Positions 7,272 to 62,565 of a stretch of DNA of 64,000 nucleotides are shown here, one piece after another (within the stretch, counting starts at the first letter, position 1; each line of letters begins with the position of its first letter). Under the pieces are notes generated by a model. The model was not told where the DNA came from and ran no database searches. It saw nothing but the letters and a program-made list of their open reading frames with translations. The stretch is from Bacteroidales bacterium (GTDB lineage: Bacteria > Bacteroidota > Bacteroidia > Bacteroidales > JAFGUD01). Where the stretch lies: NCBI GenBank assembly GCA_016938685.1, contig JAFGUD010000510.1:10568-74567 (forward strand). The letters are read 5' to 3'. The position numbers were made by a program, and so were the translations under genes.

Positions 7272-7283
7272 CTGTTTAAATTT

Positions 7284-7318
7284 TGAATAATGAATAATGA
7301 ATATCGAATAATGAAGTG
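7284..7318. repeat. Heptamer tandem block (5 units: tgaataa tgaataa tgaatat cgaataa tgaagtg)
   Basis: Read directly. Begins 13 nt from the thiolase start codon. Confidence 0.9.
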
Positions 7319-7395
7319 AAATTTAATCATTTCCTTGTGTGTAAATAATTATTTTTACATGTTCGTTTCATCTGTTTATTTTTTTAATTAAAGAA

Positions 7396-7427
7396 GTTTT
7401 CGAGTTTACCAGTTTTCGAGTTTGATT
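7396..7427. repeat. Octamer tandem block (gttttcga gtttacca gttttcga gtttgatt)
   Basis: Read directly. Same GTT..C.A word family as 17830-17965 and 24445-24532. Confidence 0.9.
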
Positions 7428-7453
7428 TATTTGAACAATCAATTATTAACCAT

Positions 7454-7495
7454 TAATTATTAATTCTTAGTTCTTAGCTCTTAATTATTTAATTA
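7454..7495. repeat. Heptamer tandem block (taattat taattct tagttct tagctct taattat ttaatta)
   Basis: Read directly. Ends at the base before the HADH stop codon (7496-7498). Confidence 0.85.
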
Positions 7496-8836
7496 TTAGT
7501 TTTTCAAAAAGTCATTTATTGGACCATAAGCGTGGAAAAATCCGGTCATTAGAACAGTATTTACATCATCTACGCTAAATGCAACTTTTGTATCAACTAA
7601 TTTTTGTCCAATTTTTCTTGAGCATTCCATATATCTCTTAGTTAAATCAGCTCCGAGAGTTTTCATACCTGAAACTTCATTAAACATTTCGCCTAAAACC
7701 TCCATTTTGTTTTTCATTCTAAGAGTAGATTTCCAAGCAACAGTTTTTTCAGGAAGATTTCCTATTCTCTTATCTGCATTTTCTTGAAAGCTTTCAAACA
7801 TTACATATTGTTTAGAATTAATGTCGTAAATAGCAATCGGTCTGCCTCTATCGTATTTAAGGAAACCATCTTTTTGAGAACCGTCGGAATTTTGTCCACC
7901 TTTAACACCTATTTCCATCATTTTGTCTAACAAATCACTATGTAAATCTTCATCAGCAAGATAAGGGTTCATAACACTCATAATATACTGACAAACATCA
8001 ACCCCCACATAATCAATAAGTTGAAAAATACCCATTGGGCGAACCATAAATTCCTGCGAAACTCTGTTTACTGTATAAAGTGCTTCTGCATATGGCATTT
8101 CTGCGGTAAGTCTTTGTACTTCATTTATTCCATGAATAGCATCGCGCATAAAATGTCCATTTCCAATAAATCCTGCGAAATCATTAGAAGGAACAACTAC
8201 TTTACCTAGATTTTTTGCATATTCTACGGCAAAAGTTTCTATTTCGGGCAATGTGTTTTCGCCTTTTATTAGCTCCACAAGTTTTTGAATAGCCGGTGGA
8301 TTATAAAAATGGAATCCTATCACTTTTCCGCCTAATTGTGCACTTTTGTCAAGATTTGAAATTGGAATTGAAGAAGTATTTGAAAAAAACCAGGTTTCTG
8401 CTGCACAATTTTCACGAACCTGAGTTAAAAGTTTTGTTTTAAGAGCGGGATTTTCAATAACAGCTTCAAAAACAATATTTGAATCATAAGCAGATTCTAA
8501 TCTTGTAGTTGGTCTTACAATTTTTAGCACATCCCAAACATATTGTTCAATAATGTCAAAATTTTCAACTAAATCAGCTCTATCTGCATATAAACCTCTA
8601 AGGGAAACCATCTTTTTTTCACCAATTTTTTTGGCTTGTACCCTTAAATAATCCATTAAACCGGTTAAACACTCCGAACAAACATCTATTGCGTTTAAAA
8701 CATAATGTTTGTTTTTATTTTCAGGTTTGAGGCTTAAATCAGCCATTTCAATTGCTGTTAAAAGTAAAATACCACTCCCCATTTTACCGGCAGCCCCAAT
8801 TACTGAAACTTTTTGTAAACGTTCTGAATATTCCAT
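7496..8836 (-). CDS. 3-hydroxyacyl-CoA dehydrogenase family protein
   Basis: N-terminal Rossmann VSVIGAAGKMGSGI; HFYNP and IGNGHF-type motifs of the HADH family; 446 aa. Confidence 0.85.
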   Translation of the reverse strand: MEYSERLQKVSVIGAAGKMGSGILLLTAIEMADLSLKPENKNKHYVLNAIDVCSECLTGLMDYLRVQAKKIGEKKMVSLRGLYADRADLVENFDIIEQYVWDVLKIVRPTTRLESAYDSNIVFEAVIENPALKTKLLTQVRENCAAETWFFSNTSSIPISNLDKSAQLGGKVIGFHFYNPPAIQKLVELIKGENTLPEIETFAVEYAKNLGKVVVPSNDFAGFIGNGHFMRDAIHGINEVQRLTAEMPYAEALYTVNRVSQEFMVRPMGIFQLIDYVGVDVCQYIMSVMNPYLADEDLHSDLLDKMMEIGVKGGQNSDGSQKDGFLKYDRGRPIAIYDINSKQYVMFESFQENADKRIGNLPEKTVAWKSTLRMKNKMEVLGEMFNEVSGMKTLGADLTKRYMECSRKIGQKLVDTKVAFSVDDVNTVLMTGFFHAYGPINDFLKN

Positions 8837-8949: not shown

Positions 8950-9642
8950 ATGATTGACCCGATAAGATACCTATACGAAAATTATAGTTTTGAAAAGTCC
9001 CAAATAAGAGAATTAATTACCGGATTAAGATATTTAGCTGTTTTGCTAAAAAATGGGGAAATTGGTGTTTGCGCAACTTTGAGCAACGATTTTGATCTTT
9101 CCCTTGATGATTTTGACAAGCCCAATTTGAATGACTTTCGGCATCGAATTTTATTAAACGCGTACTATAATGCCATTTTTAATACTGAAAAAAATGACTA
9201 TAAATACGGAGATATTACTGAAATTATTGATTTTAAGAACATTAAAGATCTGGTTATGATTGGTTATTTCAGACCGGTTGTTGAAAAATTTCAAAAAGCA
9301 GGTATTAATGTTCATATTTTTGATTTAAAAAATAAAGAGGTAACCGTTCCAATGGAATTTCAAAAAAATTACCTAAAAAAATGCGATGCCGCAATAGTTA
9401 CGGCAACTACTTTTTATAACAATACTTTTTTGGATATTACTGAAAATTGCTCCGGCGACATCTACATTTTAGGACCTTCTACAATTATGCATCCCTATAT
9501 CTTTGAATTTAGTAATGTTAAATATTTATTTGGAAGCTTATTTGAAAGAAATGACAATAGAGTTCTTGATATTATTGGCCAAGACCTGGGAACAAGACAC
9601 TTTTTAAAATTAGGGAAGAAAGTTTTTTTGAATCAAGAATGA
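8950..9642 (+). CDS. DUF4213/DUF364 Rossmann-like protein (putative heavy-metal or cofactor chelation domain family)
   Basis: Family-like layout: N-terminal LITGLRYLAVLLKNGEIGVCATL, C-terminal Rossmann-like IGYF...AAIVTATT. The first ATG is at 8950; the ORF-track TTG at 8917 is less likely. Confidence 0.6.
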   Translation: MIDPIRYLYENYSFEKSQIRELITGLRYLAVLLKNGEIGVCATLSNDFDLSLDDFDKPNLNDFRHRILLNAYYNAIFNTEKNDYKYGDITEIIDFKNIKDLVMIGYFRPVVEKFQKAGINVHIFDLKNKEVTVPMEFQKNYLKKCDAAIVTATTFYNNTFLDITENCSGDIYILGPSTIMHPYIFEFSNVKYLFGSLFERNDNRVLDIIGQDLGTRHFLKLGKKVFLNQE

Positions 9643-9852
9643 GTGAATGCTTGAATGATAGAATGAGTGAATGCTTGAATGATAAAATGATAAAATGATA
9701 AAATGATAGAATGATAGAATGATAGAATGATAGAATGATTAAATGATAAAATGATAGAATGAAGTCGGAAGTCAGCAGTAGACAGTTGGCAGTTTGTTGA
9801 AGACTGAGAACTGAAGACTGAAAGACTGAAAGACTGAAAGACTGAGAGATTG
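9637..9852. repeat. 27 phase-locked octamers (gaatgagt/gaatgctt/gaatgata/aaatgata ... gaagactg/aaagactg)
   Basis: Counted unit by unit: 216 nt = 27 x 8 with no indel. The first unit contains the TGA stop (9640-9642) of the upstream gene. The first 24 nt are duplicated exactly (9637-9660 and 9661-9684). Confidence 0.95.
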
Positions 9853-9853
9853 G

Positions 9854-10056
9854 GAACTCGAAACTCGGAACTGGGAACTCGGAACTCGAAACTCGAAACT
9901 GGGAACTCGGAACTGGGAACTCGGAACTCGAAACTCGAAACTCGAAACTCGGAACTCGGAACTGGGAACTGGGAACTCGGAACTCGGAACTCGGAACTGG
10001 GAACTCGAAACTCGAAACTCGGAACTCGGAACTCGGAACTGAGGACTGAAAGACTA
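9854..10056. repeat. 29 phase-locked heptamers (gaactcg/aaactcg/gaactgg ... gaactga ggactga aagacta)
   Basis: Counted unit by unit: 203 nt = 29 x 7. Ends 6 nt before ATG 10063. Confidence 0.95.
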
Positions 10057-10062
10057 AAAAAA

Positions 10063-11757
10063 ATGGAATTATATAAAAATAAAACAAAAACAATTTGGTA
10101 TAAAGCCGCTGCTTTGGGAAGTATTTGGGCGAGTTTTGAAATTGTACTCGGAAGTTTTTTGCACAATGTTCGTTTTCCTCTCTCCGGAACGTTATTAGCT
10201 ACTTTAGGAGTGATTTTAATGATAACTTTTGCTCAACTTTGGAACGAAAAAGGACTTTTTATTAAAGCTGGTCTTATTGCTGCGCTTATGAAATCAATTT
10301 CTCCAAGTGCAATTCTTATAGGACCAATGACAGGCATTTTTATCGAAGCTTTATTCGTTGAAATAAGCATTTTCCTAATCGGTAGAAATATATTTGGATA
10401 TTTAATAGCCGGAATTACAGCCCTGTACAGTGTTGTTATTCATAAAGTTGCAACATTACTTATTTTGTACGGCTTTGACATTGTCAGAATTACCGAAAAC
10501 TTGTATTTTTTCCTATCTAAACAACTAAACATAAACAATTTAAGTTTTTTAAACGCTCTCTTAATTTTAAGTTTTGCTTATGTAATATTAGGATTTTTTG
10601 CTGCTTTAATAGGCTTCTACACTGGAAAAATAACAAAACAAAGTAACAAAAACAATTTAGAGTTTAATGTAAAAGGATTCAAAAAAGATTTTTTAGACAT
10701 CAAAACAACTCAAAAATTTTCAGTTTATTTTTTGATATTACACCTGATAACTATCACGTCTATTTTTATTATAATCAGCAACTTAGCATTAGAATTTTCT
10801 GTAATAATCAGCGTAATTTACTTGATTTTTTGTTTTTTTAGATACAAGTCAACTTTTAGACATTTTAAAAAGGTTGGTTTTTGGATACAAATTCTAATAA
10901 TACTAATTATTTCAGTACTTTTTTACAGCGGAGTTCAAAATCTTTCGTTATTAAATAAAGATGGCTTAATAGCTGGTTTGACAATGATTTTAAGAATGTT
11001 TGTACTTGTTGTTGGATTTGCAGCAATAAGTGTTGAATTAAGAAATCCGTTTGTAAAAGCTGTTTTATTCAGAAACGGTTTCGGCAATCTGTATCATTCT
11101 TTGGGACTTGCTTTTTCAATTTTGCCGGTATTAATGGAAAAAACGACAAATCCTAAAGTTCTTGTCAAACAGCCAAGAAAAAGCATAGTTTCAATAGTCC
11201 AAAATGCAAATTCAATATATGAAAATTTTGTTGAAAATATTAAGCAAAGAAAAGTTATCATAATAACCGGAGAAAGAGGCGAAGGGAAAAGCACATACTT
11301 GCTAAATCTGACTAAAATTCTGAAAGAAAAAGATGTTTCAATTGGTGGTTTTATTGCAAAAGGACACGTAAAAGAAGGAAAAAGAAGTGGCTTCTCTATT
11401 GTGGACTTACATTCAGGCAAAGAAATGTTGCTAAGTTCTGTTGAAAAAATAGGAGAAACAAAAATCGGAAAATTCTATTTTGATTCAAACGCATTAGAAT
11501 TTGGCAAAAATATTACTTCTTATGAAAACATTTCCAAAGACAGATTTGTTGTAATTGACGAAATTGGTCCATTGGAGTTAAAAAGTCAAGGTTGGTCTTC
11601 TGTTGTCGAACAAATTTTTGAATCGCCTGAAATAATGCAAATATGGGCAGTACGAAAAGATTTAGTAAACAGTGTTTTAAGAAGATTTGCTGTTTCGGAA
11701 GCTACAATTTTTGACATTAAAAATGATGATATTGAGTCGGTAATAGAAATAATTTAA
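10063..11757 (+). CDS. Polytopic membrane protein fused to a C-terminal P-loop NTPase (THEP1/DUF2478-like)
   Basis: Start placed at the first ATG (MELYKNK...); the 71 codons upstream merely translate the heptamer repeat. About 10 hydrophobic segments over ~400 aa. Walker A GERGEGKS and Walker B FVVIDEIGPLEL. Confidence 0.75.
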   Translation: MELYKNKTKTIWYKAAALGSIWASFEIVLGSFLHNVRFPLSGTLLATLGVILMITFAQLWNEKGLFIKAGLIAALMKSISPSAILIGPMTGIFIEALFVEISIFLIGRNIFGYLIAGITALYSVVIHKVATLLILYGFDIVRITENLYFFLSKQLNINNLSFLNALLILSFAYVILGFFAALIGFYTGKITKQSNKNNLEFNVKGFKKDFLDIKTTQKFSVYFLILHLITITSIFIIISNLALEFSVIISVIYLIFCFFRYKSTFRHFKKVGFWIQILIILIISVLFYSGVQNLSLLNKDGLIAGLTMILRMFVLVVGFAAISVELRNPFVKAVLFRNGFGNLYHSLGLAFSILPVLMEKTTNPKVLVKQPRKSIVSIVQNANSIYENFVENIKQRKVIIITGERGEGKSTYLLNLTKILKEKDVSIGGFIAKGHVKEGKRSGFSIVDLHSGKEMLLSSVEKIGETKIGKFYFDSNALEFGKNITSYENISKDRFVVIDEIGPLELKSQGWSSVVEQIFESPEIMQIWAVRKDLVNSVLRRFAVSEATIFDIKNDDIESVIEII

Positions 11758-13492: not shown

Positions 13493-13517
13493 CATTTCTT
13501 ATGTAATTATCCATTTT

Positions 13518-14900
13518 CTATTTGTCACTACTAAAAGCAGGATTAAAATAAGGTACAGGCTCCGGTTTTTGTTTTAGTACATCTAGTATTTTTGTGTTCA
13601 AATACTTCTTATTTATCACTAAACGGAAAAAATATTCGGTAAACCATTCATCGGTCATTGTTAAGTAACCGCTGTTTCCATAATCGCCACCCCAACTATT
13701 TTCGAGCTTCCATTTTGTTGGTTTTCCTTCGGCGTTTAAATCAACTCCGCAAAGAGCCATTCCGTGTGAAGAACCGCTTTGATGAGTTAACATTCTTTGC
13801 TCGCGGGTCATGTTAAATTCTACTCCAAAAAGACTTTCGTAATCGTAATTATTCAAATCCAAAGTTCCGTTTGTTTTTGAAAGTTGTTTGCCAACATCAC
13901 ACGAAAAATACATAATTTCTCCGGCTTTAATCGACTCAATTGCAATTGCTTTCAAATCGGCAGAAGGAACATTTACAAAAGTCCAGTCGATTCCTTCGTA
14001 AACATTTTTGTCGTTTTCTTTTGTGTAAAGTTTGTAATATTCTCGTGTTGGGTCGTCTATAAACATCACATAATCATCAACATTTGCATTTACATTTTCT
14101 TCCCAGAATGTAAGCGGGGTGTATGTTTTGTAATCTGATATTTTTCCGTCTTCGTCTTTGTAACGCCACTGAAATTCTGTTGGTGGTTCGCCAAGACTAA
14201 TTGCAAGTATTCTATATACATCTTTCAAAATCGCTAATTTAGTAGCCTGAATTTCTTTTTTTGATGCTTTTTTGCTTATCAAATCTCTAATCTTTAATCC
14301 ACCTTCTCTCAATTTTTCATTAATTAGAAAAATCATTTTGCCGGTACTTTTACTTTGAGTACTCTCAGGCATAATATCTTTGGGAACAACTCCATATTTA
14401 ACAACAAGATTTGTAAACGAATTCCACGCTCCACCATCTCCAACAGGTGAATCAAATAATGTAAAAACTTCTCTTGAATAAATATCTTCAGACCCCGAAG
14501 CAATTACTCTTTCAAGAAAAATATTGGATTTTTCAAGAATATCCCAAAAATATAGATACGATTCTGAAAATTCAAAATTACTAATATTCAACTTTTCCAT
14601 TACAACCGGTCTGAAAACATTCAAACTTGTAAACATCCAACATCTGCCGGAACTATTTTGATTTGTTATGCTACCGGATTTTACTTCGTACTCAAAATAA
14701 TGATCTTCTTTGTCTGCAAAATCTCTATTAAATGCTAAATCGTTGATACTATTATTAGTAACAGCATTTCTTATTGCGAGGTCTTTTGCATCGGGTTTAT
14801 ACGAAGATTTTAATTGCTCAACCATTTCAGAATTAAGATTTTGACTAAATAAATTTCCCATAACAACTAAAAGTGTTAAAGTTAAAACGATTTTTTTCAT
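13518..14900 (-). CDS. pepC: Aminopeptidase C / bleomycin-hydrolase-like C1-family cysteine peptidase, with signal peptide
   Basis: NSSGRCWMF (catalytic Cys), SSHGMALCG (His) and ENSWG (Asn); 460 aa. Confidence 0.85.
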   Translation of the reverse strand: MKKIVLTLTLLVVMGNLFSQNLNSEMVEQLKSSYKPDAKDLAIRNAVTNNSINDLAFNRDFADKEDHYFEYEVKSGSITNQNSSGRCWMFTSLNVFRPVVMEKLNISNFEFSESYLYFWDILEKSNIFLERVIASGSEDIYSREVFTLFDSPVGDGGAWNSFTNLVVKYGVVPKDIMPESTQSKSTGKMIFLINEKLREGGLKIRDLISKKASKKEIQATKLAILKDVYRILAISLGEPPTEFQWRYKDEDGKISDYKTYTPLTFWEENVNANVDDYVMFIDDPTREYYKLYTKENDKNVYEGIDWTFVNVPSADLKAIAIESIKAGEIMYFSCDVGKQLSKTNGTLDLNNYDYESLFGVEFNMTREQRMLTHQSGSSHGMALCGVDLNAEGKPTKWKLENSWGGDYGNSGYLTMTDEWFTEYFFRLVINKKYLNTKILDVLKQKPEPVPYFNPAFSSDK

Positions 14901-15085: not shown

Positions 15086-17830
15086 ATGCCAAGTTATTTT
15101 AAAGTCTTAATTTTCATATTATTATGTTCGTCAGAATTCTCCATTTTTGCACAAGATGATATAATTTCTGTTTCGTCCGACAATCAATATATTGCAATTT
15201 TACAAAAACAAAAACGACTTAGAGATACTATTTATATAAAAGACACAACAAACTACAATACATCTACAATGCTACTGTACGACGCTTCAATAGAGATTTA
15301 TGAACCTTCGACAGGAAATAATATTCAAATTCTTCAACTTAAAACTAAAAGAAAAAATAAAGTTACAAGTGCTTTTTTTAGTAAAAATAAATTTATTTTT
15401 TGCGTAAACGATCAGGGAACTAAACATGTTTGGAATGTTCCGTCCGGCAAAAAAATTAAAACCGTTGAAGCTGACACAATTATACTTTCAAATATTGCAA
15501 ATTCTTTTTATGCACAAAAAAACAACCGCATAATTAAACATTCTTATTATTACAACACAAGCAAAGAATACAAAATCCCGGAAGATAATCCAATCACTAA
15601 AATAGGAATTACTTCTGATGATAAATTTTTATTAGCAAAAGGCAACGAAGATAAAATTTACATTTGGAATATTCGTTCTTCAAATGATGAAATAACAACT
15701 ATTTTCGGCGAGGATTTTTCTACAGATGATCAAGGTAATTTTTTCATTAGCAAATATTATAAAGGAACTGTAAATATTTCAAAATTTAATGCGGAAACTA
15801 ATGATTTAGAGTACAATAAAGAAAGAAATATCAACAGCAAAACGTATGTAAAACCAAGTAAAGTAATCAAAAGAAAGGTAAAAAAAGACCAATCGGAGTT
15901 TAGTCCTGACGGAAAATATTACACTTACACTTGGCGTCAAGGATTTTCTAAAAACATTACAACTATTAATCTACAGACCGGAACAAAGGTTTACGAAACA
16001 AAAAAAGACTTCAAAAAATATAACAAAACAACTCCATATTTCTACAACGACTCTATTTGTATGCTTCAAAAAGACGACAAAACTGTTAGTATTTTTGATT
16101 TAAACACTAATAAAGTAATTGACGAAGTTTCTTACTCTAAAAAAATTGAACCATCACAAATATTATTTGACCAAAAAGCTGTTGCAATTATTGATGAAAA
16201 CAGAAAAATTCTGGCTGTAAAAGATGAGGAAAACATTAAAGAAATTGAAGGTTATATTCCAATAAAAGGTTTAAACAATACAAACGAATTTTATTTTGCA
16301 AAAAACAAAAAAAACGAACTTGAATACTTTCCTGTTAAAAATATAATGAACGATAGTTCAAATTTAGTTCTCGAAGAACCGAAAAAGAAAAATCTGAAAA
16401 TTAAACAAGAATTTCAAAAATTCAGACTTGACACAAATTCTTATGTTTCAATCAACGATTTATCGCATGTTTCCAAAGCAAAAGACACAACAACTCATTT
16501 GGTTGTAAAATCAGTTCAAATTGGCGAAGATTTTACCGGTTTGCAGTTTTACGTTCTTGATGACAATAATAATTTCTACTACGGAATTTCAGAAGAAAAC
16601 TGGCAAAATGTTATTTGCGGAGTAACTATTGAAAATGAATACGGAGAAATTATGCCGATTGACGACTATCAAATAATGGAATATAGCGAAAAACAAGGAA
16701 CTCCGGTAGCAATGTGTTTTGTGCTCGATCACAGCGGTTCAATGGGAACTACAAACGCAACTCTTATGCAACAAGGTCTTTTGAGTTTGGCTAACAAAGT
16801 TAAAGGAAACGAAGGTATTGCAATTGTTAAGTTTGATGAAGACATTGAAACTACTGTAGAAATGACAGGAAAAACATCAACAGTTGCCAAAGAATTTGAG
16901 GTAAAAGGACTTGACGGTTTTGGTGGTGCCACTGCCCTACTCGATGGTATTAATCAAGGATTAGATGTTTTAATAGAAAGCGACAAATATCAAAATAAAG
17001 CTCTTGTTGTACTTACCGACGGCTACGAAAATTCTTCATCTTCAACAAAAAATCAGGTTTTGCTCAAAGCAATGCAAAATAACATTGGAATATACGCAAT
17101 TGGTTATGGTTCTAATATTGACGTTGAATTTTTGAAATCTATTTCGACAAATACAAGTGGTGGTTATTACTGGATTAACAACAACAACATGTTTGATGAC
17201 GTATTTGAAGATGTGTACAAAAACATGAAAAACTATTACACTATCAATTTCAACACGCCTTATCCGGGTTTGTACAAAATAAAACTTGAACTTTGCCTTG
17301 AAGATTCTTACGATAGTGTTGTTTATTACTTCGACAATTATGTGCCAAACATATTATTTACAAACGAGCGCAACGAATATGATTCTTTGTTTGAAGTAAT
17401 TACAGGGATTGGCGACACAATTACTCTCGATAATTTTAATTCTTATAAAATATACAAAGACATTCAATTTGTTGAGTACAAAAAAGAATTTGACTCTATT
17501 ATTTTTCCCGACATAAAATTTTATTTTGATGAAACCAGAATTGTTGAAGGTACTGATAAAGAGCTTATAAACGTGATCAATTTCATGAAAAAATATCCGC
17601 AATTACGCATTGAAATACAAGGACATACTGACAGTAAAGGAGGTTTATTATACAACGAAAAACTGTCGCAAGCCAGAGCCGAAAAAGTTCGTCAAATTAT
17701 GGTTGATGCGGGAATTGAAGCTCAAAGAATTAGAACAATAGGTTACGGCGAAACAAAACCGATAGACACAAATGACACAGACGAAGGACGACAAGAAAAC
17801 CGAAGAGTTGAGTTTTTGCTGATAAAATAG
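15086..17830 (+). CDS. Secreted beta-propeller-like + VWA + OmpA-C-terminal domain protein
   Basis: Signal peptide; MIDAS motif VLDHSGSMG; C-terminal OmpA peptidoglycan-binding motif (IEIQGHTDSKG...NEKLSQARA...NRRVEF). Confidence 0.8.
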   Translation: MPSYFKVLIFILLCSSEFSIFAQDDIISVSSDNQYIAILQKQKRLRDTIYIKDTTNYNTSTMLLYDASIEIYEPSTGNNIQILQLKTKRKNKVTSAFFSKNKFIFCVNDQGTKHVWNVPSGKKIKTVEADTIILSNIANSFYAQKNNRIIKHSYYYNTSKEYKIPEDNPITKIGITSDDKFLLAKGNEDKIYIWNIRSSNDEITTIFGEDFSTDDQGNFFISKYYKGTVNISKFNAETNDLEYNKERNINSKTYVKPSKVIKRKVKKDQSEFSPDGKYYTYTWRQGFSKNITTINLQTGTKVYETKKDFKKYNKTTPYFYNDSICMLQKDDKTVSIFDLNTNKVIDEVSYSKKIEPSQILFDQKAVAIIDENRKILAVKDEENIKEIEGYIPIKGLNNTNEFYFAKNKKNELEYFPVKNIMNDSSNLVLEEPKKKNLKIKQEFQKFRLDTNSYVSINDLSHVSKAKDTTTHLVVKSVQIGEDFTGLQFYVLDDNNNFYYGISEENWQNVICGVTIENEYGEIMPIDDYQIMEYSEKQGTPVAMCFVLDHSGSMGTTNATLMQQGLLSLANKVKGNEGIAIVKFDEDIETTVEMTGKTSTVAKEFEVKGLDGFGGATALLDGINQGLDVLIESDKYQNKALVVLTDGYENSSSSTKNQVLLKAMQNNIGIYAIGYGSNIDVEFLKSISTNTSGGYYWINNNNMFDDVFEDVYKNMKNYYTINFNTPYPGLYKIKLELCLEDSYDSVVYYFDNYVPNILFTNERNEYDSLFEVITGIGDTITLDNFNSYKIYKDIQFVEYKKEFDSIIFPDIKFYFDETRIVEGTDKELINVINFMKKYPQLRIEIQGHTDSKGGLLYNEKLSQARAEKVRQIMVDAGIEAQRIRTIGYGETKPIDTNDTDEGRQENRRVEFLLIK

Positions 17831-17965
17831 TTGGTGAGTTATCGAGTTGTTGAGTTATCGTGTTATCGAGTGGTCGAGTTATCGGGTTATCGAATTGTCG
17901 GGTTGTCGAGTTATTGAGTTATTGAGTTGTCGAGTTGTCGAGTTGTCGAGTTGTCGAGTAGACAG
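17830..17965. repeat. 17 phase-locked octamers (gttatcga/gttgtcga/gttattga family)
   Basis: Counted unit by unit: 136 nt. The first unit starts on the G of the TAG stop (17828-17830). Ends with gtagacag. Confidence 0.95.
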
Positions 17966-18026
17966 CAATCAATCAAATATTTGCAAAAAAAACATCAGTA
18001 TTAACTAAAAATCATTCAATTCACTA

Positions 18027-24418: not shown

Positions 24419-24420
24419 AT

Positions 24421-24588
24421 TATTAAGTTTATTAAGTTTATAAAGTTATCGAGTTAATCAGTTATCGAGTTAACCAGTTTGCCAGTTAACCAGTTATCGA
24501 GTTAACCAGTTTACCAGTTTACCAGTTAACCGGTGTTTAGTTTATAGTTAATTTTCAAATCACCAAATTTTCAAATCATCAAATCAAA
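24421..24588. repeat. Tandem mosaic: 2 nonamers (gtttattaa gtttataaa), about 12 GTT-anchored octamers (gttatcga/gttaacca/gtttacca...), 4 CAAAT-anchored octamers
   Basis: Read directly. Starts 3 nt from the ugd start codon (24416-24418) and extends to the distal -7-like box. Confidence 0.9.
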
Positions 24589-24592
24589 AATA
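24585..24592 (-). promoter_or_regulatory. -7-like box TATTTTTG at the distal edge of the repeat array upstream of ugd
   Basis: Plus-strand caaaaata. If used, the whole array would be a ~165-nt 5' leader. Confidence 0.35.
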
Positions 24593-24721
24593 TAGTATTT
24601 GAAAACCATTAATTTAAACTATTCTACAAAAATGGTTAAATTTTATTTTTTAACAAATTTGCGATAAATAATTAAACTTAAAAATGACAAAAATCGTATT
24701 GATAATTGCGAAAAATCAGGT

Positions 24722-24757
24722 ATAAAAAAACCCGCAACTTTTTAGAAGCGGGTTTTA
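24722..24757 (-). terminator. Rho-independent terminator after the COG2403/CPGS-like gene
   Basis: Stem cccgc (24731-24735) / gcggg (24748-24752), extended by A/T pairs. T-run follows on the minus strand. Confidence 0.8.
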
Positions 24758-24780
24758 AATTATAAATTATCAACTGTAAT

Positions 24781-26115: not shown

Positions 26116-26375
26116 AATTATTAAATTAAAAAGTTATTAATGTTTGTAAAGCTTGTAAAGAATATAATTCTACTTTTCCATTCTTCAACGTTATACTTTA
26201 CAAACTTCCAACTATGTTTCATGACAAAATTAAAGATTTTAAACAAATTCCAAATTTTATTAAATATTTTTAAAATAAAAACAAATAAAATACTGATAAT
26301 CAATAGATTAAATTAAAATGTTTTTAAGCTATTTAATACATGAGTAAAGTCATTTATCAATTTGGCAATAAGCTG

Positions 26376-26415
26376 ATTTGACGATTTTATAATTTGATGA
26401 TTTTAAAATTTAACA
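26376..26415. repeat. Short degenerate octamer run (atttgacg attttata atttgatg attttaaa atttaaca)
   Basis: Read directly. Five ATTT-anchored units. Confidence 0.6.
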
Positions 26416-44936: not shown

Positions 44937-46802
44937 TTATTTAATTATAAAATTTTTATAAAAAATCCCTTTATGGGTTTTTGATAGCAGAATATAACTA
45001 TTTGAAGACAAATAAGAAACATCTATTTCAAAATAATTTTCGCCTATAAAATATTTGTTTTCTTCCGAAAACAACAATTTTCCATCAATTGAATATATCT
45101 CAAAACCAACTTTCCCTGTCTCTTTTGAATTAATTTCAATATTTAATTTATCAGTAGTAGGATTAGGAAACAAATTAACTCTTAAAACATCTGTTATAGG
45201 TTGATATTGAATCAAATTAGTTACAGCAGTAGTATCAATAGTTAATAACGAATCGGTAAAAACTTTTGCATAATATATTTCTAAATCAGTTCCATCTTCA
45301 ACATGTTGAGCCCAAAAAACATATACATTAGAATTTGTTACAGCAGGTCGGTAATACTCTCCAACACCCATTGAATTAACAATTTCGTTATAATTAAAAA
45401 AATTATCAGAAATATTTCTTTGCAAAAAAGTTTCACCTCCATCATAAGACACACCAACAAAAAAATCCGTATTATACACATCAGGAATTTGACCATATCT
45501 AGTATCGTACCAGCCAATTACAACTTTACCATCAGGAGAAACATTAATACTTGGTCTGTGATGAAATTTATAACTAGCAGGTGCGTCTGAATTTGCCATT
45601 ATCGGTTCCGACCAGTCTGCTCCATTATTATCTGAATAACTCAAATACACATTTACATTACTGAAAAAATTTGTGTCATTAGAATTCCAGACAACATAAA
45701 TTCTGCCATCATACATTCCTCCGCTAGTATCGGTAGCAATGTATGCACTTGAGTACAATCTTTCGTAAGCGTGAGTATTTGTATTATTATATTGTAATGC
45801 AGCCCCCATATTATTTACAAAAACTTTTGAAACGACAACTGTATCAGACCATGTAAGTCCATCATCAATAGAATTTTGATAGTATAATTTTTCATAAGCT
45901 ATTTCATCTTCTGGAGCAATTATTAGGGTTGTGTCATCATAAGCAGGATAAATAGCATGAAGCACACCTTTATTGTCATAAACAATTGCCCCCTGAGTAG
46001 AGGCAAACTGACTGGAATAAGGCACCAAAACATGACTTGTAACTACCTCTAAATTATCAGCCGGTTTTCTTCTAACACCCCAAATATCAGTGATTGAATC
46101 AGCATGATAAAATTCAGTAGAAGAAAAGAAAATATCATCAGTTTGAGGATTTATTGTCATCCATTGTTTATCAGGAGGCATTCCACTGTCCACTGCTGTA
46201 ATTCCTTCTCCTAAAACATAATCAAACACACCCCATGCAATAGTGTCGTTATCTGGTCTTATCCATGTTTCTCCTTTATCATCTGAATATGCATAATATA
46301 GTACCAAATCCATGTAAATTTCATTTAACGAAACAACATTTGCTACCAGATATAACCAAGAAAAATGAGCTCTTCCGTTTTTGTCAAAAACAATCACTGG
46401 ATCACCACCTCCTCCAACAGCTCTCGTTTGAGAGAGATTGTGAGGCTTAAAATCACTAGAAGAACTATTCCAAGTATTTCCTCCATCTTTTGTGTACATC
46501 ATTTCAAATAACAAAGGATTTGTTGCTGTTTGAGAAAAATCCAGACTCATCCACGACACAATAATATTATTTGTATCAGTAGGATTTGCTGCCGCAAACA
46601 GCTCTAAATCTTCTCTGCCATTTTCAGTAAATTGTTGTTCAATATCAGATTTTAATTCTTGTTCTACTATTTTTTCAGTAGGCAAAATGACTTTCTTCTC
46701 TAAAAGTTGAGACAATAAATTCTGAGAGAAAGAAATTTGACCTAAAAAAATCATAAACAAAAACAGGAATAATACTTTTTGATTAATATTTATTCTATTC
46801 AT
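44937..46802 (-). CDS. BNR/Asp-box repeat (sialidase-like beta-propeller) protein with T9SS C-terminal sorting domain
   Basis: Five Asp-boxes (TKDGGNTW, SDDKGETW, SIDDGLTW, SDNNGADW, SYDGGETF) and a C-terminal LFPNPTTDKLNIE...FYKNFIIK. Confidence 0.8.
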   Translation of the reverse strand: MNRININQKVLFLFLFMIFLGQISFSQNLLSQLLEKKVILPTEKIVEQELKSDIEQQFTENGREDLELFAAANPTDTNNIIVSWMSLDFSQTATNPLLFEMMYTKDGGNTWNSSSSDFKPHNLSQTRAVGGGGDPVIVFDKNGRAHFSWLYLVANVVSLNEIYMDLVLYYAYSDDKGETWIRPDNDTIAWGVFDYVLGEGITAVDSGMPPDKQWMTINPQTDDIFFSSTEFYHADSITDIWGVRRKPADNLEVVTSHVLVPYSSQFASTQGAIVYDNKGVLHAIYPAYDDTTLIIAPEDEIAYEKLYYQNSIDDGLTWSDTVVVSKVFVNNMGAALQYNNTNTHAYERLYSSAYIATDTSGGMYDGRIYVVWNSNDTNFFSNVNVYLSYSDNNGADWSEPIMANSDAPASYKFHHRPSINVSPDGKVVIGWYDTRYGQIPDVYNTDFFVGVSYDGGETFLQRNISDNFFNYNEIVNSMGVGEYYRPAVTNSNVYVFWAQHVEDGTDLEIYYAKVFTDSLLTIDTTAVTNLIQYQPITDVLRVNLFPNPTTDKLNIEINSKETGKVGFEIYSIDGKLLFSEENKYFIGENYFEIDVSYLSSNSYILLSKTHKGIFYKNFIIK

Positions 46803-46823
46803 CTATTTATTTTGTTTTTTAAA

Positions 46824-46871
46824 AAGAATGTTTGATTATTTTTTATTGTAAAAAACATCAAACATTCTTTC
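46824..46871 (-). promoter_or_regulatory. 14-bp intercistronic stem-loop between the PKD-protein and BNR-protein genes
   Basis: aaagaatgtttgat (46824-46837) / atcaaacattcttt (46858-46871). No T-run on either strand. Confidence 0.45.
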
Positions 46872-46899
46872 GGTTATATAAAAATACTATGCATTAATT

Positions 46900-49248
46900 T
46901 TATTTAATAATAATTTTTTGATACATAGTTTTTCCATTGAGTTCATAATTAATAAAATACAATCCTTTTGAGTAGCTTCTCATATCTATCTGTCCATTAG
47001 AAACGATTTCTCCTTGATAAACGATTACTCCACTTGGACTAATAATACGAATAGTAGTAGGACTCATAGAAACAATATTAATAATTCCTGTAGAAGGATT
47101 TGGATAAATCAATAACGACACATTGTTTTCTGTTAAGCTTAAAGGTGTCATAACCACATCAACATTATCGTCTATTCCGTCAACAGTAAATGAACTAGAA
47201 TAATTATTAAACCCGGTTGCAGTAACATCAAAATCATAGTCTCCATTAACTAAATCTATTGTTGCGTTTCCATCAACATCTGTGGTTATTGCAGAATATC
47301 CATCAACTGTAATTGTCGCCAAATTAATAGCATCAGAACCGTCTGTTACATTAAATGTAATTGTATATTCAGTTGCTGTTAGAGTTACAGGAATTGCTTC
47401 ATTTCCAGCACTAATAGTGAAGTTTCCATTAGCAGAATCGTAACCTGGGGCATCAACAGTATAGTCATAAGAACCATCATACAAACTAAAAGTAGCAACT
47501 CCTAAACCATCAGTAGTTTGAGTCCCCTCACCAGTAACAGTAACAGTAGCTCCAGAAACAGGATTTGTTCCGTCAGTAACAGTAAACACTGCGTCATAAG
47601 CAAGTATTTCGACCAAAGTCACATCAACCGGAACGTTTGCATCACTAACAGTAAATGAATTATTATTTGTTTCATAACCACTTGCAGACACACTGTAATT
47701 ATAAGTTCCGTTATATAAATCAAAAGTAGCAACTCCTGAAGAATTGGTTGTAGCAGAACCTTGTCCTGTTATTGATACAATTGCGCCTGAAATAGGATTT
47801 GTTCCGTCAGTAACAGTAAATGTAACAGTATAATTACTTCCACATCCACCGCCAGCACTAATATAATTCATTTTTGTAATAGTAACAGGGCTATTTGAAT
47901 ACGTACTGTTTGTGGCAATCATTTGAATACTATAGCACCCTGCCTGATAAAACTGAATAGAAGGATTTTCAGAAGTATTTGAAGTAAAATTAACAAACCC
48001 CCAATGAACTCCGCTAGTACCTGGACTTACAGCCCACTGATATGTTGTAGTTCCTTGAAGAGGATCCCCAGTTGAAACTGTAATATCACTTGTGAAATCA
48101 ACAATTCCGTTAGTTGCAACAGAGGTATTATCAGCTATGAAGTCAGCAACTAGTTCAGGAGCTGCAGTAACTGTAATATAGTCCACTTTTGTTTCTGTAT
48201 CAGATCCTAGTGTGGTATTTGTGGCCGTTAAAGCTACCGTATATGTGCCGGGTTGAGTAAATTTAACTTGTGGTTCAACAGAAGTAGAGCTAGTAGCGTT
48301 TTCATAAGTAACATTATTTGGTGAAAAAGACCAAGTCCAAGTATTATTATTTAAAGGTTCTGTTTCATTATAAAAAGTAAAAACATCATCTGTTGTTCCA
48401 GTTGTGATATCAGCAGAAAAGTCGGCAACAACATTCGTGTAATCCGGACGATACCATTTCAAAGAGTATGTAGTACCCTTGCCATCTTTTGATGTTGTTT
48501 CAGAAGATTCAACATAAGACATAACAGGGCCTTCAACGCCTTCAACGAACCAATAATAAGCAATATCTTCTATTACAGCAGTTGACATAACCGTATTTCC
48601 TGCCCCAAAATCTGCCCACAGTTTTAAGTCAAATGTTTCTGTAACTTTTACTCTTAAAGCATCATGATATGTTTTATGAGGTAACATAAGTGTTCCATAA
48701 CCATCTACTTTAAATTGATAAGAACCACTTTCAACAGTAACATCAGTTTCAACACCGTATCCGGCGTCCCAAGCTCCTGCACCAACAAATGAATAATTAA
48801 GTGCTGACGAACCGCCAGTCCAAGTGAAAGGATAAGGATTAAGGTTAATTGAAGTTGGATCATAAGCTACCCACATTTCAACACCTCCTTCATTTGCATA
48901 AAACCCTGAACGCCTCCAACCGTCACCGCCATCTTTATCATAATAAAAATAACCATTTGTAGCTCCATCTATTTGTTCTGCGACATCTACATTAGGCATA
49001 AAACCAACCATTGGTAATCCTGTCGTATCAATATACGAAACGGTTTGACTATTTGTTTCTGCTTTATCAGTAAAATCCCAAACAACATTTGCACCTTCAG
49101 CTCCAGGATCAAAAGCATCAGCACCAAATACATTTCTGTAGATTATTTCATCTCCTAAATCAAAAGCATTGTCACTAGTGATAGTAATCTGTGAAAAACC
49201 GGCTACTGAAAATAACAGTACCATAAAAAATAAACCTAATTTCTTCAT
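46900..49248 (-). CDS. PKD-domain + three CarboxypepD_reg-like repeats protein with T9SS C-terminal sorting domain
   Basis: Signal peptide; two PKD-like modules; three ~85-aa repeats (FTVTDGTNP.SGA.V...G.ATF.LY.G.Y.Y); C-terminal LLIYPNPSTGIINI...MYQKIIIK. Confidence 0.8.
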   Translation of the reverse strand: MKKLGLFFMVLLFSVAGFSQITITSDNAFDLGDEIIYRNVFGADAFDPGAEGANVVWDFTDKAETNSQTVSYIDTTGLPMVGFMPNVDVAEQIDGATNGYFYYDKDGGDGWRRSGFYANEGGVEMWVAYDPTSINLNPYPFTWTGGSSALNYSFVGAGAWDAGYGVETDVTVESGSYQFKVDGYGTLMLPHKTYHDALRVKVTETFDLKLWADFGAGNTVMSTAVIEDIAYYWFVEGVEGPVMSYVESSETTSKDGKGTTYSLKWYRPDYTNVVADFSADITTGTTDDVFTFYNETEPLNNNTWTWSFSPNNVTYENATSSTSVEPQVKFTQPGTYTVALTATNTTLGSDTETKVDYITVTAAPELVADFIADNTSVATNGIVDFTSDITVSTGDPLQGTTTYQWAVSPGTSGVHWGFVNFTSNTSENPSIQFYQAGCYSIQMIATNSTYSNSPVTITKMNYISAGGGCGSNYTVTFTVTDGTNPISGAIVSITGQGSATTNSSGVATFDLYNGTYNYSVSASGYETNNNSFTVSDANVPVDVTLVEILAYDAVFTVTDGTNPVSGATVTVTGEGTQTTDGLGVATFSLYDGSYDYTVDAPGYDSANGNFTISAGNEAIPVTLTATEYTITFNVTDGSDAINLATITVDGYSAITTDVDGNATIDLVNGDYDFDVTATGFNNYSSSFTVDGIDDNVDVVMTPLSLTENNVSLLIYPNPSTGIINIVSMSPTTIRIISPSGVIVYQGEIVSNGQIDMRSYSKGLYFINYELNGKTMYQKIIIK

Positions 49249-49268
49249 AATTTTAAAATTTTAAAGTT

Positions 49269-52200
49269 TTAATTGTGCAATATTATCTTTTTTGTGTATA
49301 TTTTATCATTAATATATACAATTATAGTGTACATTCCTTCTGAAACATAATACAAATCATATATATTATATCTCAATGAAGGATGATGTTCTTCAATAAG
49401 TCTCCCCGACACATCAAAAATACTAATTTTTGTGTTATTATCAGGTATTTCTTTTGTGTTTATGAAAACCTTCATCAAATCACTATAAATTACCACATCT
49501 TGTTCTTCTTGAGTTTTATTTGCTTCTATAGTTTGTTCTAATTTATTGAACCAAATAACAAAACGATCTCTAAAAACACCTGGTTCTGAATGGAAAACAT
49601 ATTGATTTTCAGGACTTAACTTAACACTTACATTTCTATAATTATCTCTTAAGTATGCACTTGTAGAATCGGGCAAATTTATTTGATTTGAAATTATTGA
49701 ATACTGTCCGCTCGTACCTACTTTTATTCCCAAAGGAACAATTGTATTATCTTCAATATTTGGACAACTAGCTATAGAAAGGTTTAAGTTATCGTCACTA
49801 ATTGAAAACAGATACGGTACTTCATCAGAATATCCAACAAGTTTTATAGCGTCCAATTGCCCATCGAAGTTATTTGTTGCATTAGGAATAAAACGCAAAA
49901 CTACCTCATCTTCAATTAGTTCATTATCAATAGACAATCTTATTGTTGGAGGTTCAGCAACGGGAGATTTATAAAAAGCAGTAGGATTATGAATTCTGGA
50001 ATCATTTGTTACCTGAATTGAAGCACCTGGAGCATTTGCTCTTACAAAAAATGATTGACCAATCGGAATGCAACCAGACACACGGTTTATAACAATTGAA
50101 GGATACGGATTCAAATTAGATTCAGGTAAAAAATAAGAATAATTATTATAAGAACCTGAGCCGTCATCTTTGTAAAAATATATAGCTCCATCTATGTTTA
50201 TTTTGGAAATATTATCATTATCATACCAATTTAATGTCGAAGGATAAGGATTCCCAACAAGATTCCAACCATCAAAAACAGCATTGCCGTGTGTGCCAGT
50301 ATTATCTGTATATGTTAGATTATATAGAATATTTCCATCGTTAAATTCACCTTCGTAATTAATTGTATCTTCCAATTGGTAAGTAATGTACCCTTGCATA
50401 ACGTTCAATATTCCTGTAGCATTTGTCCAGCCCATTAAACCACCCGTGAAATTATCCATACTCCATGAATCCGATAGACTTTCATCGTACCAATAGAAAT
50501 TTGGAGCAAAAAACAATCCAGCGTCAGCATCTACAATTGGACTTGAAATATAATGCCACATTGCCTCACTAATATAACTTTGCACAGTTGTTGTGCCAGC
50601 TCCGTAATTTATTACTCCTTTGTTAATAAAAGAACCTGTTCCTGTTGGATCAGATTGAACAACAAAATCTCCGTTTTGATTCATATTTCCCCAAACTGTT
50701 AAATATTTATTTGGAGCAATATATAAATGCGCGCCTGCCTGAATTGTCAAATTTTTAGTTTCTGCAAGGTTATCTATATTGCTGTTAGTTTCAGGGAAAT
50801 AGCCTCCAACCGGAGTAGTAGGAATTACAACATTTGTAGCATTTGAAACATAAGTATTAGGTAACCAGTTTGTTACTATATTCCAATCGTTACTAGTGTT
50901 TCCAGTCCAAATAACGCTTCCGAGATATTCGTCGGCTCCAATATATGGTGGATTTTGACGAGTTTCTCCGTCTAAGTCAATTGTTATTCCGGTAGAATTA
51001 TCTCCAACTTGCAATCCTGCATTTTCTGTATGCAAATTGGTTATAGACAAATAAACTGGGTTAATTGTTATCGAATTTGCTCCTTTTCCTACAAAATCAG
51101 GCAAGAAATTATTGAAATTTTCGATTGAATTTATTAAACTTGTAACATCATAACTAATTGCAGAAGCTGATATAAAATTATTGTTTTTTATATTTAAAAA
51201 TTCAGCCGTATTAATTCTTATTCCGCTACCATTTGGACTTAAAACATTGGTACTATTGAATAAAACATTGATGTATTCACTACTTCCTGTACTACTCTCG
51301 ATGTTTATACCGTAGCTTGTTGCAGAATTTCCAATAGCCAGCATGTTGTTAATTAATTGAGCTTCATTACCCAAAGAACAAGCAACATCATCTAAAAACA
51401 AACCATAACCATCAGCAGACGAAGAAGATATGATGTTACCAATCAAATAAAATTCGGTATTTGCAGTTATACAAGATATTCCTCTAAAATCGTTTCGTGT
51501 TGAATTTGTTGAAAAATCATTATTTAAAATAAATGGAGAACTAATATTTTGAAGCCATAATCCACCAGCCGACTGATTTTTAAACACATTATTAATTAAA
51601 TAAAGACTATCTATATTTTGACTAGAATTTTTACCAGTTATATTAAGAGCAAAACTTCCGTTATTAAATTCACAATTATTAAAATTGATATTTCCGGAAT
51701 TTGTAATTGTATCCTTTGTATAAACTAAAGCAAAATCATTAGTATTTAAGGCAGTTGAAATCCCATTAAATTCACAATCGACAAAATTAATATGATGTGT
51801 ATTTTCTGAAATTTCAAGAACTCTGCCATTTGTTGCACCTAAAGCTCTAAAATCGAAATTTTTAAAAGTAATATATTTTGTTCTATACAACTTTAGAGTA
51901 TAGTTCTCATCAATATCAGAATCGTATTGAAGAACTGCACTTCCACAGTCATCACACCAAGTTTCAAAAGTAATTGTATTAGTTTCACTTGCACCGCATA
52001 TAGTTCCAATTTGGATTTGCTCATCAAAAGCAATATCAGCCACATTAAAATGAACAGGTCCACTAATACCAAATAGTTCCAGACTATCTATTGCTGATTG
52101 AAAATCAGGAAAACTTCCGGTTCCATCAATTATTCTGTCTCCTTCCATCGCATCAACAGGATTAAAGGCAACATTTCCTTCAAGCAAAATCTGAAAATCA

Positions 52201-62180: not shown

Positions 62181-62565
62181 AGTTCTTTGTTTATATATTT
62201 AAAAGTGAAATGATTTTTCTTCAACTTAATTTATTCAAAAAATTAAAAATCATTGAAAATAGTTATCATTCAAACCAGATTTGCTTCCTTCGACATTTAT
62301 TATAAAAACCGACATTTTATCCAGTAGGAAAGAGAACGGAGAATTGTTTAAAATTCAACTAAAACAATTAATAATATTCATCAGTGTGAACAATTATTAT
62401 TTGCAAAAAAACAAGTTTTAGAACTAGTATTATAATGACTAATTCAACTATCATAAAACACAGACAACAAATGACAAAGTGCGGTTGCGGATATAAAGCT
62501 AATTTTAAAAAAATAATAATATAATGAAAGAAAAAAATGATTCCATCTTTGGCACACTTTAGCAA

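Follow-up and report, generated by a model that had tools for sequence, protein, structure and literature searches.

A 420-nt spacer between a DUF364 gene and an NTPase gene of a Bacteroidales genome consists of 7- and 8-nt tandem repeats

Bacterial genomes have been known to contain arrays of heptamers since the short tandemly repeated repetitive (STRR) sequences of cyanobacteria, and we know of no established function or dispersal mechanism for them. In the 64 kb stretch of DNA analyzed here (the window), which comes from an uncultured, AT-rich Bacteroidales lineage, a gap of 420 nt separates two co-oriented genes, encoding a DUF364 protein and an NTPase, and is filled by tandem repeats of 7 and 8 nt. 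The locus therefore raises the question, and allows a direct test, of whether such a spacer is inert filler, an expression tuner or a binding platform. Judged from sequence comparison, the spacer is probably a composite simple-sequence array generated by slippage, of the STRR, long simple sequence repeat (SSR) or TAACTGA type, which would be carried as an untranslated linker on a bicistronic mRNA, would have replaced translational coupling and would have no conserved sequence-specific role. The spacer and its two flanking genes comprise the following features, which were defined by Tandem Repeats Finder (TRF), a parse of the repeat units, RNA folding and Pfam.

8950-9642, + strand: DUF364/DUF4213 gene (Pfam PF04016 at 2.8e-25)
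9637-9764, + strand: block A, 16 octamers of the GAATGATA type (TRF period 8/24, unit parse)
9765-9799, + strand: block B, about five degenerate heptamers, TCGGAAG TCAGCAG TAGACAG TTGGCAG TTTGTTG (lag-7 autocorrelation 0.52-0.60)
9763-9835, + strand: imperfect hairpin in which block B pairs with the start of block C (RNA fold)
9800-9852, + strand: block C, ACT-core units of the GACTGAAA type with spacings 7,7,8,8,8,8 (TRF and positions of the ACT/ATT cores)
9853-10041, + strand: block D, 27 heptamers in sense orientation (TRF score 278, unit coding)
10042-10062, + strand: tail, AGGACTG AAAGACT AAAAAAA (sequence)
10063-11757, + strand: NTPase gene, 564 aa, with a C-terminal THEP1-like NTPase domain (Pfam PF03266)

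Tandem repeat was found to fill 9637-10062, from within the stop codon of the DUF364 gene to the A-run before the ATG of the NTPase gene, as an earlier reading of the letters alone (the sequence-only reading) had claimed. TRF reported period 8 with a higher-order period of 24 at 9637-9762, period 8 with 6.5 copies at 9800-9849 and period 7 with 26.9 copies and 90% matches at 9853-10040. With a run defined as a 32-nt stretch of at least 75% self-identity at lag 7 or lag 8, three lag-7 and eleven lag-8 runs were counted in the window, and none in 50 shuffles of it. The inner arrangement had to be corrected: instead of 27 octamers followed by 29 heptamers, the spacer holds 16 octamers, about five inverted heptamers and an ACT-core array of 36 units, among them 27 heptamers of the GGAACTC type. 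This last array runs as one from 9800 to 10056, with spacings of 7,7,8,8,8,8, then 27 times 7, then 8; the period does change near 9853, but as one of several switches within a single array and not as the only switch from 8 to 7.

In block A the opening unit, gaaTGAgt, supplies the stop codon of the DUF364 gene (TGA, 9640-9642), as first read, and the initial 48 nt are two copies of a 24-nt higher-order unit (GAATGAGT GAATGCTT GAATGATA). The block is 48% A and 2% C, ATG recurs in it every 8 nt (15 spacings of 8), and as each unit holds both ATG and TGA all frames are stopped. The 16 AUGs, each with a stop nearby, could trap re-initiating ribosomes, although they are probably meaningless. The ATG that overlaps the DUF364 stop codon (gaATGAgt) opens a mini-ORF (open reading frame) of 19 codons, MSECLNDRMSECLNDKMIK (window 9639-9698). 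Block B follows the pattern CAGTNNN and is oriented opposite to blocks C and D; because its reverse complement consists of ACTG/ACTT-core units, it is read as an inverted part of the family formed by blocks C and D. The segment 9750-9860, which contains the hairpin, is predicted to fold at -26.9 kcal/mol (z = -2.9), with the minimum free energy (MFE) structure equal to the centroid, and the apex of the hairpin (9771-9790) is the sole terminator-like match in the spacer, a weak one with a poor T tail.

Block D is composed of 13 GGAACTC (a), 7 GAAACTC (b), 6 GGAACTG (c) and 1 GAAACTG (d) in the order abcaabdacaabbbaccaaacabbaac and ends 22 nt upstream of the NTPase ATG. Its RNA is predicted to fold into a slippery run of 5-bp CUSGG/CUSGG helices and AA/AA internal loops (-51.5 kcal/mol, z = -3.4, MFE frequency 0.3%). 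On either side the heptamers are bordered by units of the GACTGAAA type, and the tail is, by its sequence, a leftover of block C units. As the tail matches block C, block D would have grown inside it: it may have expanded within an older GACTGAAA octamer array, probably by way of a 7-nt variant, GAACTGA, that stands in block C at 9808-9814. Block A would be an independent GAATGATA expansion, now the source of the DUF364 stop codon, and block B a short inverted stretch. The 24-nt higher-order units, the repeated multi-unit motifs and the degenerate edges around a homogeneous center are traits expected of such expansion.

Both ends of the array coincide with boundaries of the neighboring genes. 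The DUF364 gene likely starts at ATG 8950, within an ORF that is open from TTG 8917. In an alignment with three orthologues its conserved core stops at LGKKVF, and the window protein has the shortest tail, with four residues between the core and the TGA of the array. For the NTPase, 514 homologues were obtained in a database search, the best of which are 564-581 aa long at about 100% coverage. Its N-terminus after ATG 10063, MELYKNKTK, corresponds in position to MEYYKNKTK and VELYKNN, with which the homologues at the two closest orthologous loci (L001 and L002) begin, and on this alignment ATG 10063 is the true start. Seven A (10056-10062) directly precede it. In the upstream regions of 44 window genes A peaks at -14 to -10 and reaches 82% at -11, and a Shine-Dalgarno (SD)-like motif is present in 2 of the 44. 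Initiation without SD sequences has been reported for Bacteroidota, and the start regions of the window agree with it. The degenerate tail provides the NTPase gene with its A-rich, SD-less initiation region, and the array takes up the whole interval between two selected boundaries, the end of the DUF364 core and the NTPase initiation region.

The frame continuous with ATG 10063 is free of stop codons from 9838 on and has a possible start at TTG 9850, so that the heptamers could be translated as an N-terminal extension of the NTPase. The sequence-only reading had noted that the heptamer block is open and in frame with the downstream gene, which was confirmed; stop codons are in fact absent from all six frames of the block. 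This is a trivial property, since the unit yields no TAA, TAG or TGA in any rotation, and no significance can be attached to it: the homologues begin at the conserved MEL/YYKNK of ATG 10063, and the open frame through the heptamers is accordingly non-coding. An assembly artefact might also be considered, as tandem arrays are hard to assemble and a run of N interrupts an array at one locus of a relative (L003). However, the variants follow each other irregularly and no exact internal repeat exceeds 39 nt, which opposes a collapsed or looped assembly, and independent assemblies of relatives show arrays of the same kind. Taken as one alternative, extension or artefact is very improbable. With 39 nt as the longest exact repeat, assembly with k above 39 could settle the copy number.

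The comparison with related genomes that the sequence-only reading had proposed was carried out at five loci (L001-L005), each of which keeps the DUF364-NTPase pair in the same orientation. In the searched collections, identity of the NTPase to its nearest homologue is 70%, and none closer was found. At the three loci L003, L004 and L005, of a relative at 60% identity, the two genes overlap by 14 nt. At L001 (69% identity) they are separated by a unique, repeat-free spacer of 156 nt and at L002 (70% identity) by a short unique spacer. The array was thus not found at the orthologous junction in any of L001-L005, and as the junction of the relatives is either an overlap or a unique spacer, the array is a lineage-specific expansion and not a conserved element. 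One two-gene operon is therefore seen in three states, with an overlap, a short unique spacer or a 420-nt all-repeat spacer, which provides a natural comparison between filler, expression tuner and binding platform.

These states fit the slippage-generated linker proposed above. Repeated slipped-strand or unequal-exchange expansions within a formerly tight operon junction would have made the array, which would have grown to the limits set by selection at the DUF364 core and at the A-rich, SD-less initiation region. If the array replaced translational coupling, the NTPase gene needs independent initiation at ATG 10063. Most likely the array is part of the transcript of both genes and forms there a long, untranslated, purine-rich and weakly structured linker. 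Its effect would be to set downstream expression and to shift it by changes in copy number, and no dedicated partner would be needed.

Co-transcription through the array had been proposed from the lack of a TAnnTTTG promoter box. The box (TANNTTTG) indeed has no match between 9505 and 10389, but since the motif is not enriched in the window (130 matches against 112±10 expected) its absence is weak evidence; a scan for sigma-70-like promoters gave matches at chance level. Read-through is supported indirectly, by the conserved pair on one strand, the 14-nt overlap at L003, L004 and L005, the missing box and the presence of one weak terminator-like hairpin only.

According to the sequence-only reading the heptamer half recalls CsrB, RsmY and RsmZ, RNAs with many GGA motifs; on this view it would act as a sponge for a protein of the CsrA type. 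The count on which this was based holds, as 19 of the 27 heptamers contain GGA (13 GGAACTC and 6 GGAACTG) and the sense strand has about 20 GGA in 190 nt, but the likeness is limited to this number of GGA in a short RNA stretch. None of 21 GGA lies in an A(N)GGA context (AGGA occurs once), and the GGA are paired in the predicted 5-bp CUSGG stems instead of lying in hairpin loops. No Rfam match was obtained for the window at the gathering score or for 9400-10300 at E ≤ 1. Neither a promoter nor a terminator of its own was found apart from the chance-level sigma-70 matches and the weak hairpin, and the other arrays of the window are without GGA. CsrA is not known to occur in Bacteroidota. A sponge RNA is hence hardly credible here.

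Repeats of this kind are not confined to the DUF364-NTPase spacer. Arrays of period 7 or 8 were detected in five further spacers of the window (7272-7498, 17829-17959, 24420-24528, 24550-24586 and 26374-26411), and all 14 autocorrelation runs are intergenic in a window that is 89% coding. AACT-core and GAAT-core unit families recur among them, and several arrays have the core S-G-N1-3-AACT in common (CGGAACT, CGAAAACT, CGACAACT, CGATAACT and GGTTAACT). In two of the five sister spacers, 7272-7498 and 17829-17959, the array begins at or beside the upstream stop codon. Three of the sister loci were resolved as follows.

7272-7498, - strand: three arrays in the spacer between a 3HCDH gene and a thiolase gene (TRF, autocorrelation)
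17829-17959, + strand: 15.5 octamers GAGTTGTC/GAGTTATC, which read GACAACTC on the - strand (TRF)
24420-24586, - strand: array in the 5' leader of a UDP-glucose dehydrogenase (UDPG-DH) gene, about 11 octamers CGATAACT/GGTTAACT in sense orientation (TRF)

The first of these resembles the DUF364-NTPase spacer in being filled from stop to start. In sense order, TAATAAT/TAAGAAC heptamers, whose opening unit is the TAA of the 3HCDH gene (7498-7496), are followed by CGAAAACT octamers (7395-7423) and by ATTATTC heptamers that stop 12 nt upstream of the thiolase ATG. Two further filled spacers were found outside the window. At L003 a 512-nt spacer (13504-14015) consists of repeats over its full length between stop and start: GAATGTT/GAATATT heptamers are joined there by a 48-nt unit of AACAATGT octamers that contains a small hairpin; its downstream ATG lies within the final repeat unit, and the run of N in it is a scaffold gap. 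More generally, arrays of the L003/L271 lineage are made of AACAATG and GAATNTT units. At L071, from the complete genome of Ca. Pollutiaquabacter aromativorans (Bacteroidota, 53% G+C), the intercistronic spacer 1453-1683 reads stop, eight AGTGAAY, eight GAAACTC, a GC-rich hairpin, nine CCCTCGT and ATG, a layout as in the window spacer. In both spacers a stop codon is followed first by GAAT-type and next by AACT-type units, which may be coincidence because L071 was chosen for its AACT array.

Turnover could be followed at the UDPG-DH leader, where the octamers stop 25 nt from the ATG, a 16-nt repeat lies upstream of them and a TATTTTTG box at 24592-24585 lies upstream of the array. The best matches to the UDPG-DH protein, at 88-90% identity, are from uncultured Bacteroidales. 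In one of them (L274, 88% identical and syntenic) the orthologous leader (9386-10000, against 24419-24780 on the - strand of the window) has homologous flanks and the same terminator of the upstream gene, but it holds 43 CGACAAACT nonamers instead of about 11 octamers; both arrays end 21-25 nt before the ATG. No array was found in this leader in four other relatives at 88-90% identity. Eleven octamers, 43 nonamers or none at orthologous positions imply fast turnover. The unit GAGTTATC of the array at 17829-17959 also occurs 11.6 times at an unrelated locus of L274 (3897-3989), in sense orientation and ending about 40 nt upstream of a start codon. Richness in arrays is patchy, with none in about 40 kb sampled from three relatives, which matches reports on long SSRs (PMC4692102; Mrazek 2007 as cited in PMC4679880). 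The 16 kb sampled from GCA_016936595.1 (L273) had no arrays, and the array-rich genomes are those of the window and of L274, GCA_020722645.1 and GCA_973310575.1.

Such turnover would be expected if the spacer were a contingency locus, at which gain or loss of 7- or 8-nt units alters the distance or the structure between the cistrons and so causes heritable variation in NTPase expression. The predicted slippage potential of 27 near-identical heptamers and 16 octamers is very high, unit number and length differ between the two UDPG-DH leaders that have an array, and assembly gaps fall within such arrays in relatives. The tract, however, is bounded by a stop codon and the start that follows it, is located neither within an ORF nor between promoter elements, and is accompanied by no promoter box; a change in units can therefore switch neither a frame nor a promoter. 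A similar array lies directly 3' of the stop codon of an OmpA/VWA gene in a convergent spacer (17829-17959), where such a role is impossible. We regard a contingency function as improbable.

The slippage-generated linker has close parallels in described repeats. STRR heptamers and long SSRs with units of 5-11 nt (Mazel 1990; Mrazek 2007, both as cited in PMC4679880 and PMC4692102) are described as head-to-tail, non-coding arrays, mostly of heptamers, in which few unit families occupy many loci with a sporadic phylogenetic distribution, and polymerase slippage is proposed there as their generator. Similarly, the window spacer is head-to-tail with periods 7 and 8 (16 and about 36 units, where shuffles give none), and the window arrays are restricted to non-coding DNA and have units whose length is not divisible by three. 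They occupy six spacers with few unit families, are not conserved at orthologous loci and change fast in unit and copy number. They differ in that octamers are as common as heptamers and that the host belongs to an uncultured AT-rich Bacteroidales lineage. The G-rich heptamer arrays GGGAATC of Xanthomonas and GGGGA(T/C)T of Nostoc, the latter with 26 units between pecE and pecF (Rehm 2015, PMC4692102), differ widely in length and sequence when a given spacer is compared among close relatives (PMC4692102). Like the long, perfect pecE-pecF array, the window spacer holds a long heptamer array between cistrons of an operon, but it is composite with several unit families. G-rich arrays can form G-quadruplexes, whereas GGAACTC, with GG runs only, is not expected to, and quadruplex formation was rejected as an explanation.

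The closest comparison is offered by the TAACTGA direct repeats described in Beggiatoaceae, Cyanobacteria and five Bacteroidetes (MacGregor 2015, PMC4679880). In several Bacteroidetes and Cyanobacteria they reach up to 43 copies; in Gramella forsetii, Aequorivita sublithincola and Elizabethkingia anophelis long TAACTGA arrays are set in spacers together with other heptamer repeats; close relatives lack the arrays at the matching spacer (PMC4679880). The window spacer is comparable in its composite blocks A-D, which have no counterpart in relatives, in the sense orientation of block D, which ends 22 nt before ATG 10063, and in the hexamer TAACTG within units of the array at 24444-24528. Unlike TAACTGA repeats, its units are GGAACTC, GAAACTC and GGAACTG, so that only the AACT core is common. 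In addition, the unit length switches between 7 and 8 (9 in a relative), and the array separates two cistrons of one operon and takes up their spacer completely. The window spacer therefore belongs to a known kind, of which it is an unusually long and complete example, with the mixed unit length of 7/8(/9) nt and the cross-phylum sense bias described below as modest additions. If it is only slippage debris, the array is ordinary and mainly warns of spurious ORFs and mis-assemblies at such sites.

A different possibility is that the ACT/AACT part of the spacer (9800-10056) is a selected cis-acting leader element, an amplified native AACU leader motif that acts as a ribosome standby or enhancer pad or as an array of sites for a single-strand RNA-binding protein and thereby enables or regulates independent initiation downstream. 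This would extend MacGregor's TAACTGA hypothesis to AACT-core arrays. The pattern G[GA]AACT[CG] (GRAACTS), repeated at least four times, was found in no fewer than 120 stretches from representative genomes of GTDB, which span Acidobacteriota, Planctomycetota, Desulfobacterota, Gemmatimonadota, Verrucomicrobiota, Bacteroidota, Gammaproteobacteria and Cyanobacteria; tandem repeats at these loci are of period 7 in 238 cases and of period 8 in 23. Three copies of GA[CT]AACTC were present in 91 metagenome stretches with a G+C content of 30-70%. The frequency of GRAACTS was compared with permuted units in viral contigs only, where four copies gave 17 stretches and the four permuted controls 15, 16, 78 and 19, so that these contigs yield no evidence for a globally privileged AACT heptamer. 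The wide distribution over phyla and this viral comparison count in favor of the slippage-generated array. The control with 78 viral-contig stretches, GRATCAS repeated four times (L174-L251), is four to five times as frequent as the other heptamers; its arrays that are spanned by an ORF are all in sense (27:0), which suggests a coding repeat of 7 aa. The maximum of the scan was reached by Desulfonema magnum, a filamentous sulfate reducer with six G[GA]AACT[CG] loci (L009, L013, L043, L054, L079 and L111), a result reminiscent of the link between TAACTGA repeats and large filamentous bacteria.

The orientation of the arrays relative to genes was determined at 198 non-redundant public loci, at which the arrays were masked before ORFs were called crudely as the longest frames; phylogenetic non-independence is only partly controlled in these tests. 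Here, and at two further points, the evidence weighs against the slippage-generated linker. AACT[CG]G arrays that lie at most 40 nt upstream of an ORF start are in sense in 36 cases and in antisense in 8 (p = 2.5e-5); within 150 nt the ratio is 82:32, and when counted per genome it is 40:19 and 20:5. Such a start-proximal bias hints at selection or at an RNA-level role. Secondly, unrelated loci of the lineage have the core S-G-N1-3-AACT in common at periods 7, 8 and 9, for which pure local slippage is insufficient. Thirdly, no conspecific sequence in which polymorphism of copy number could be seen was found in the collections, and the window NTPase protein occurs on one contig only.

Close to stop codons the same arrays show no bias (21:24), nor do control arrays of period 7-9 at the same loci when oriented by their A-rich strand (30:25 and 57:54). 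The control ratio of 30:25 led us to reject A/T skew as the cause of the sense bias. Avoidance of Rho, with less C than G on the mRNA, was also considered; it fits the window spacer and fails for GACAACTC, whose sense strand has three C and one G. In the 40-nt leaders of 42 other window genes, AACTT as a single copy is over-represented in sense (12 occurrences against 3.8±1.9, a number reached in none of 500 shuffles), whereas its complement AAGTT is not (2 against 3.4 expected), and the coding strands hold AACT and AGTT in similar numbers (322 and 337). Further in favor of a leader element, 147 of 170 TAACTGA sets in the genome of BOGUAY, the orange Guaymas 'Maribeggiatoa', point to a start codon (PMC4679880). 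Four AACT-core arrays of the lineage, block D, the array at 24444-24528 and two at L274, stop in sense 21-40 nt upstream of an ATG, and the UDPG-DH leader keeps its array in two genomes. Together these data suggest that AACT-core arrays may be amplified leader sequence under a constraint at the RNA level.

Against a leader element stand the missing array at the DUF364-NTPase junction of all sampled relatives and at the UDPG-DH leader of four of five. The bias is partial, at about 70-80%, and depends on crude ORF calls; for co-oriented gene pairs the orientation tests did not reach significance (23:16 and 17:11), and the viral-contig sets are too small for any effect to show. A candidate binding protein was not found, and blocks A and B lie outside the AACT-core family. 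We treat a selected leader element in the spacer as the main alternative, though a tentative and rather unlikely one. Slightly more speculative is its generalization, in which AACT-core arrays (units of 7-9 nt with S-G-N1-3-AACT, TAACTGA included) would form a cross-phylum class of sense 5'-leader elements that recruit ribosomes or a single-strand RNA-binding factor, and the 36-unit array would be an internal landing pad that replaces coupling and sets the expression ratio of DUF364 to NTPase. The data yield a testable generalization, that in many phyla AACT[CG]G arrays tend to point in sense toward start codons, whereas other arrays at these loci do not.

Two observations concern other parts of the window. 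The sequence TATTTGCAAAAAAA occurs twice exactly, in two long spacers (17978-17991 and 62398-62411), which is not above chance, as 0.86 matches are expected with one mismatch allowed. An ORF of 4303 aa on the - strand (44937-62180) encodes Laminin_G_3, F5/8 type C and MAM-like domains and is adjoined by two proteins with C-terminal sorting domains of type IX secretion.

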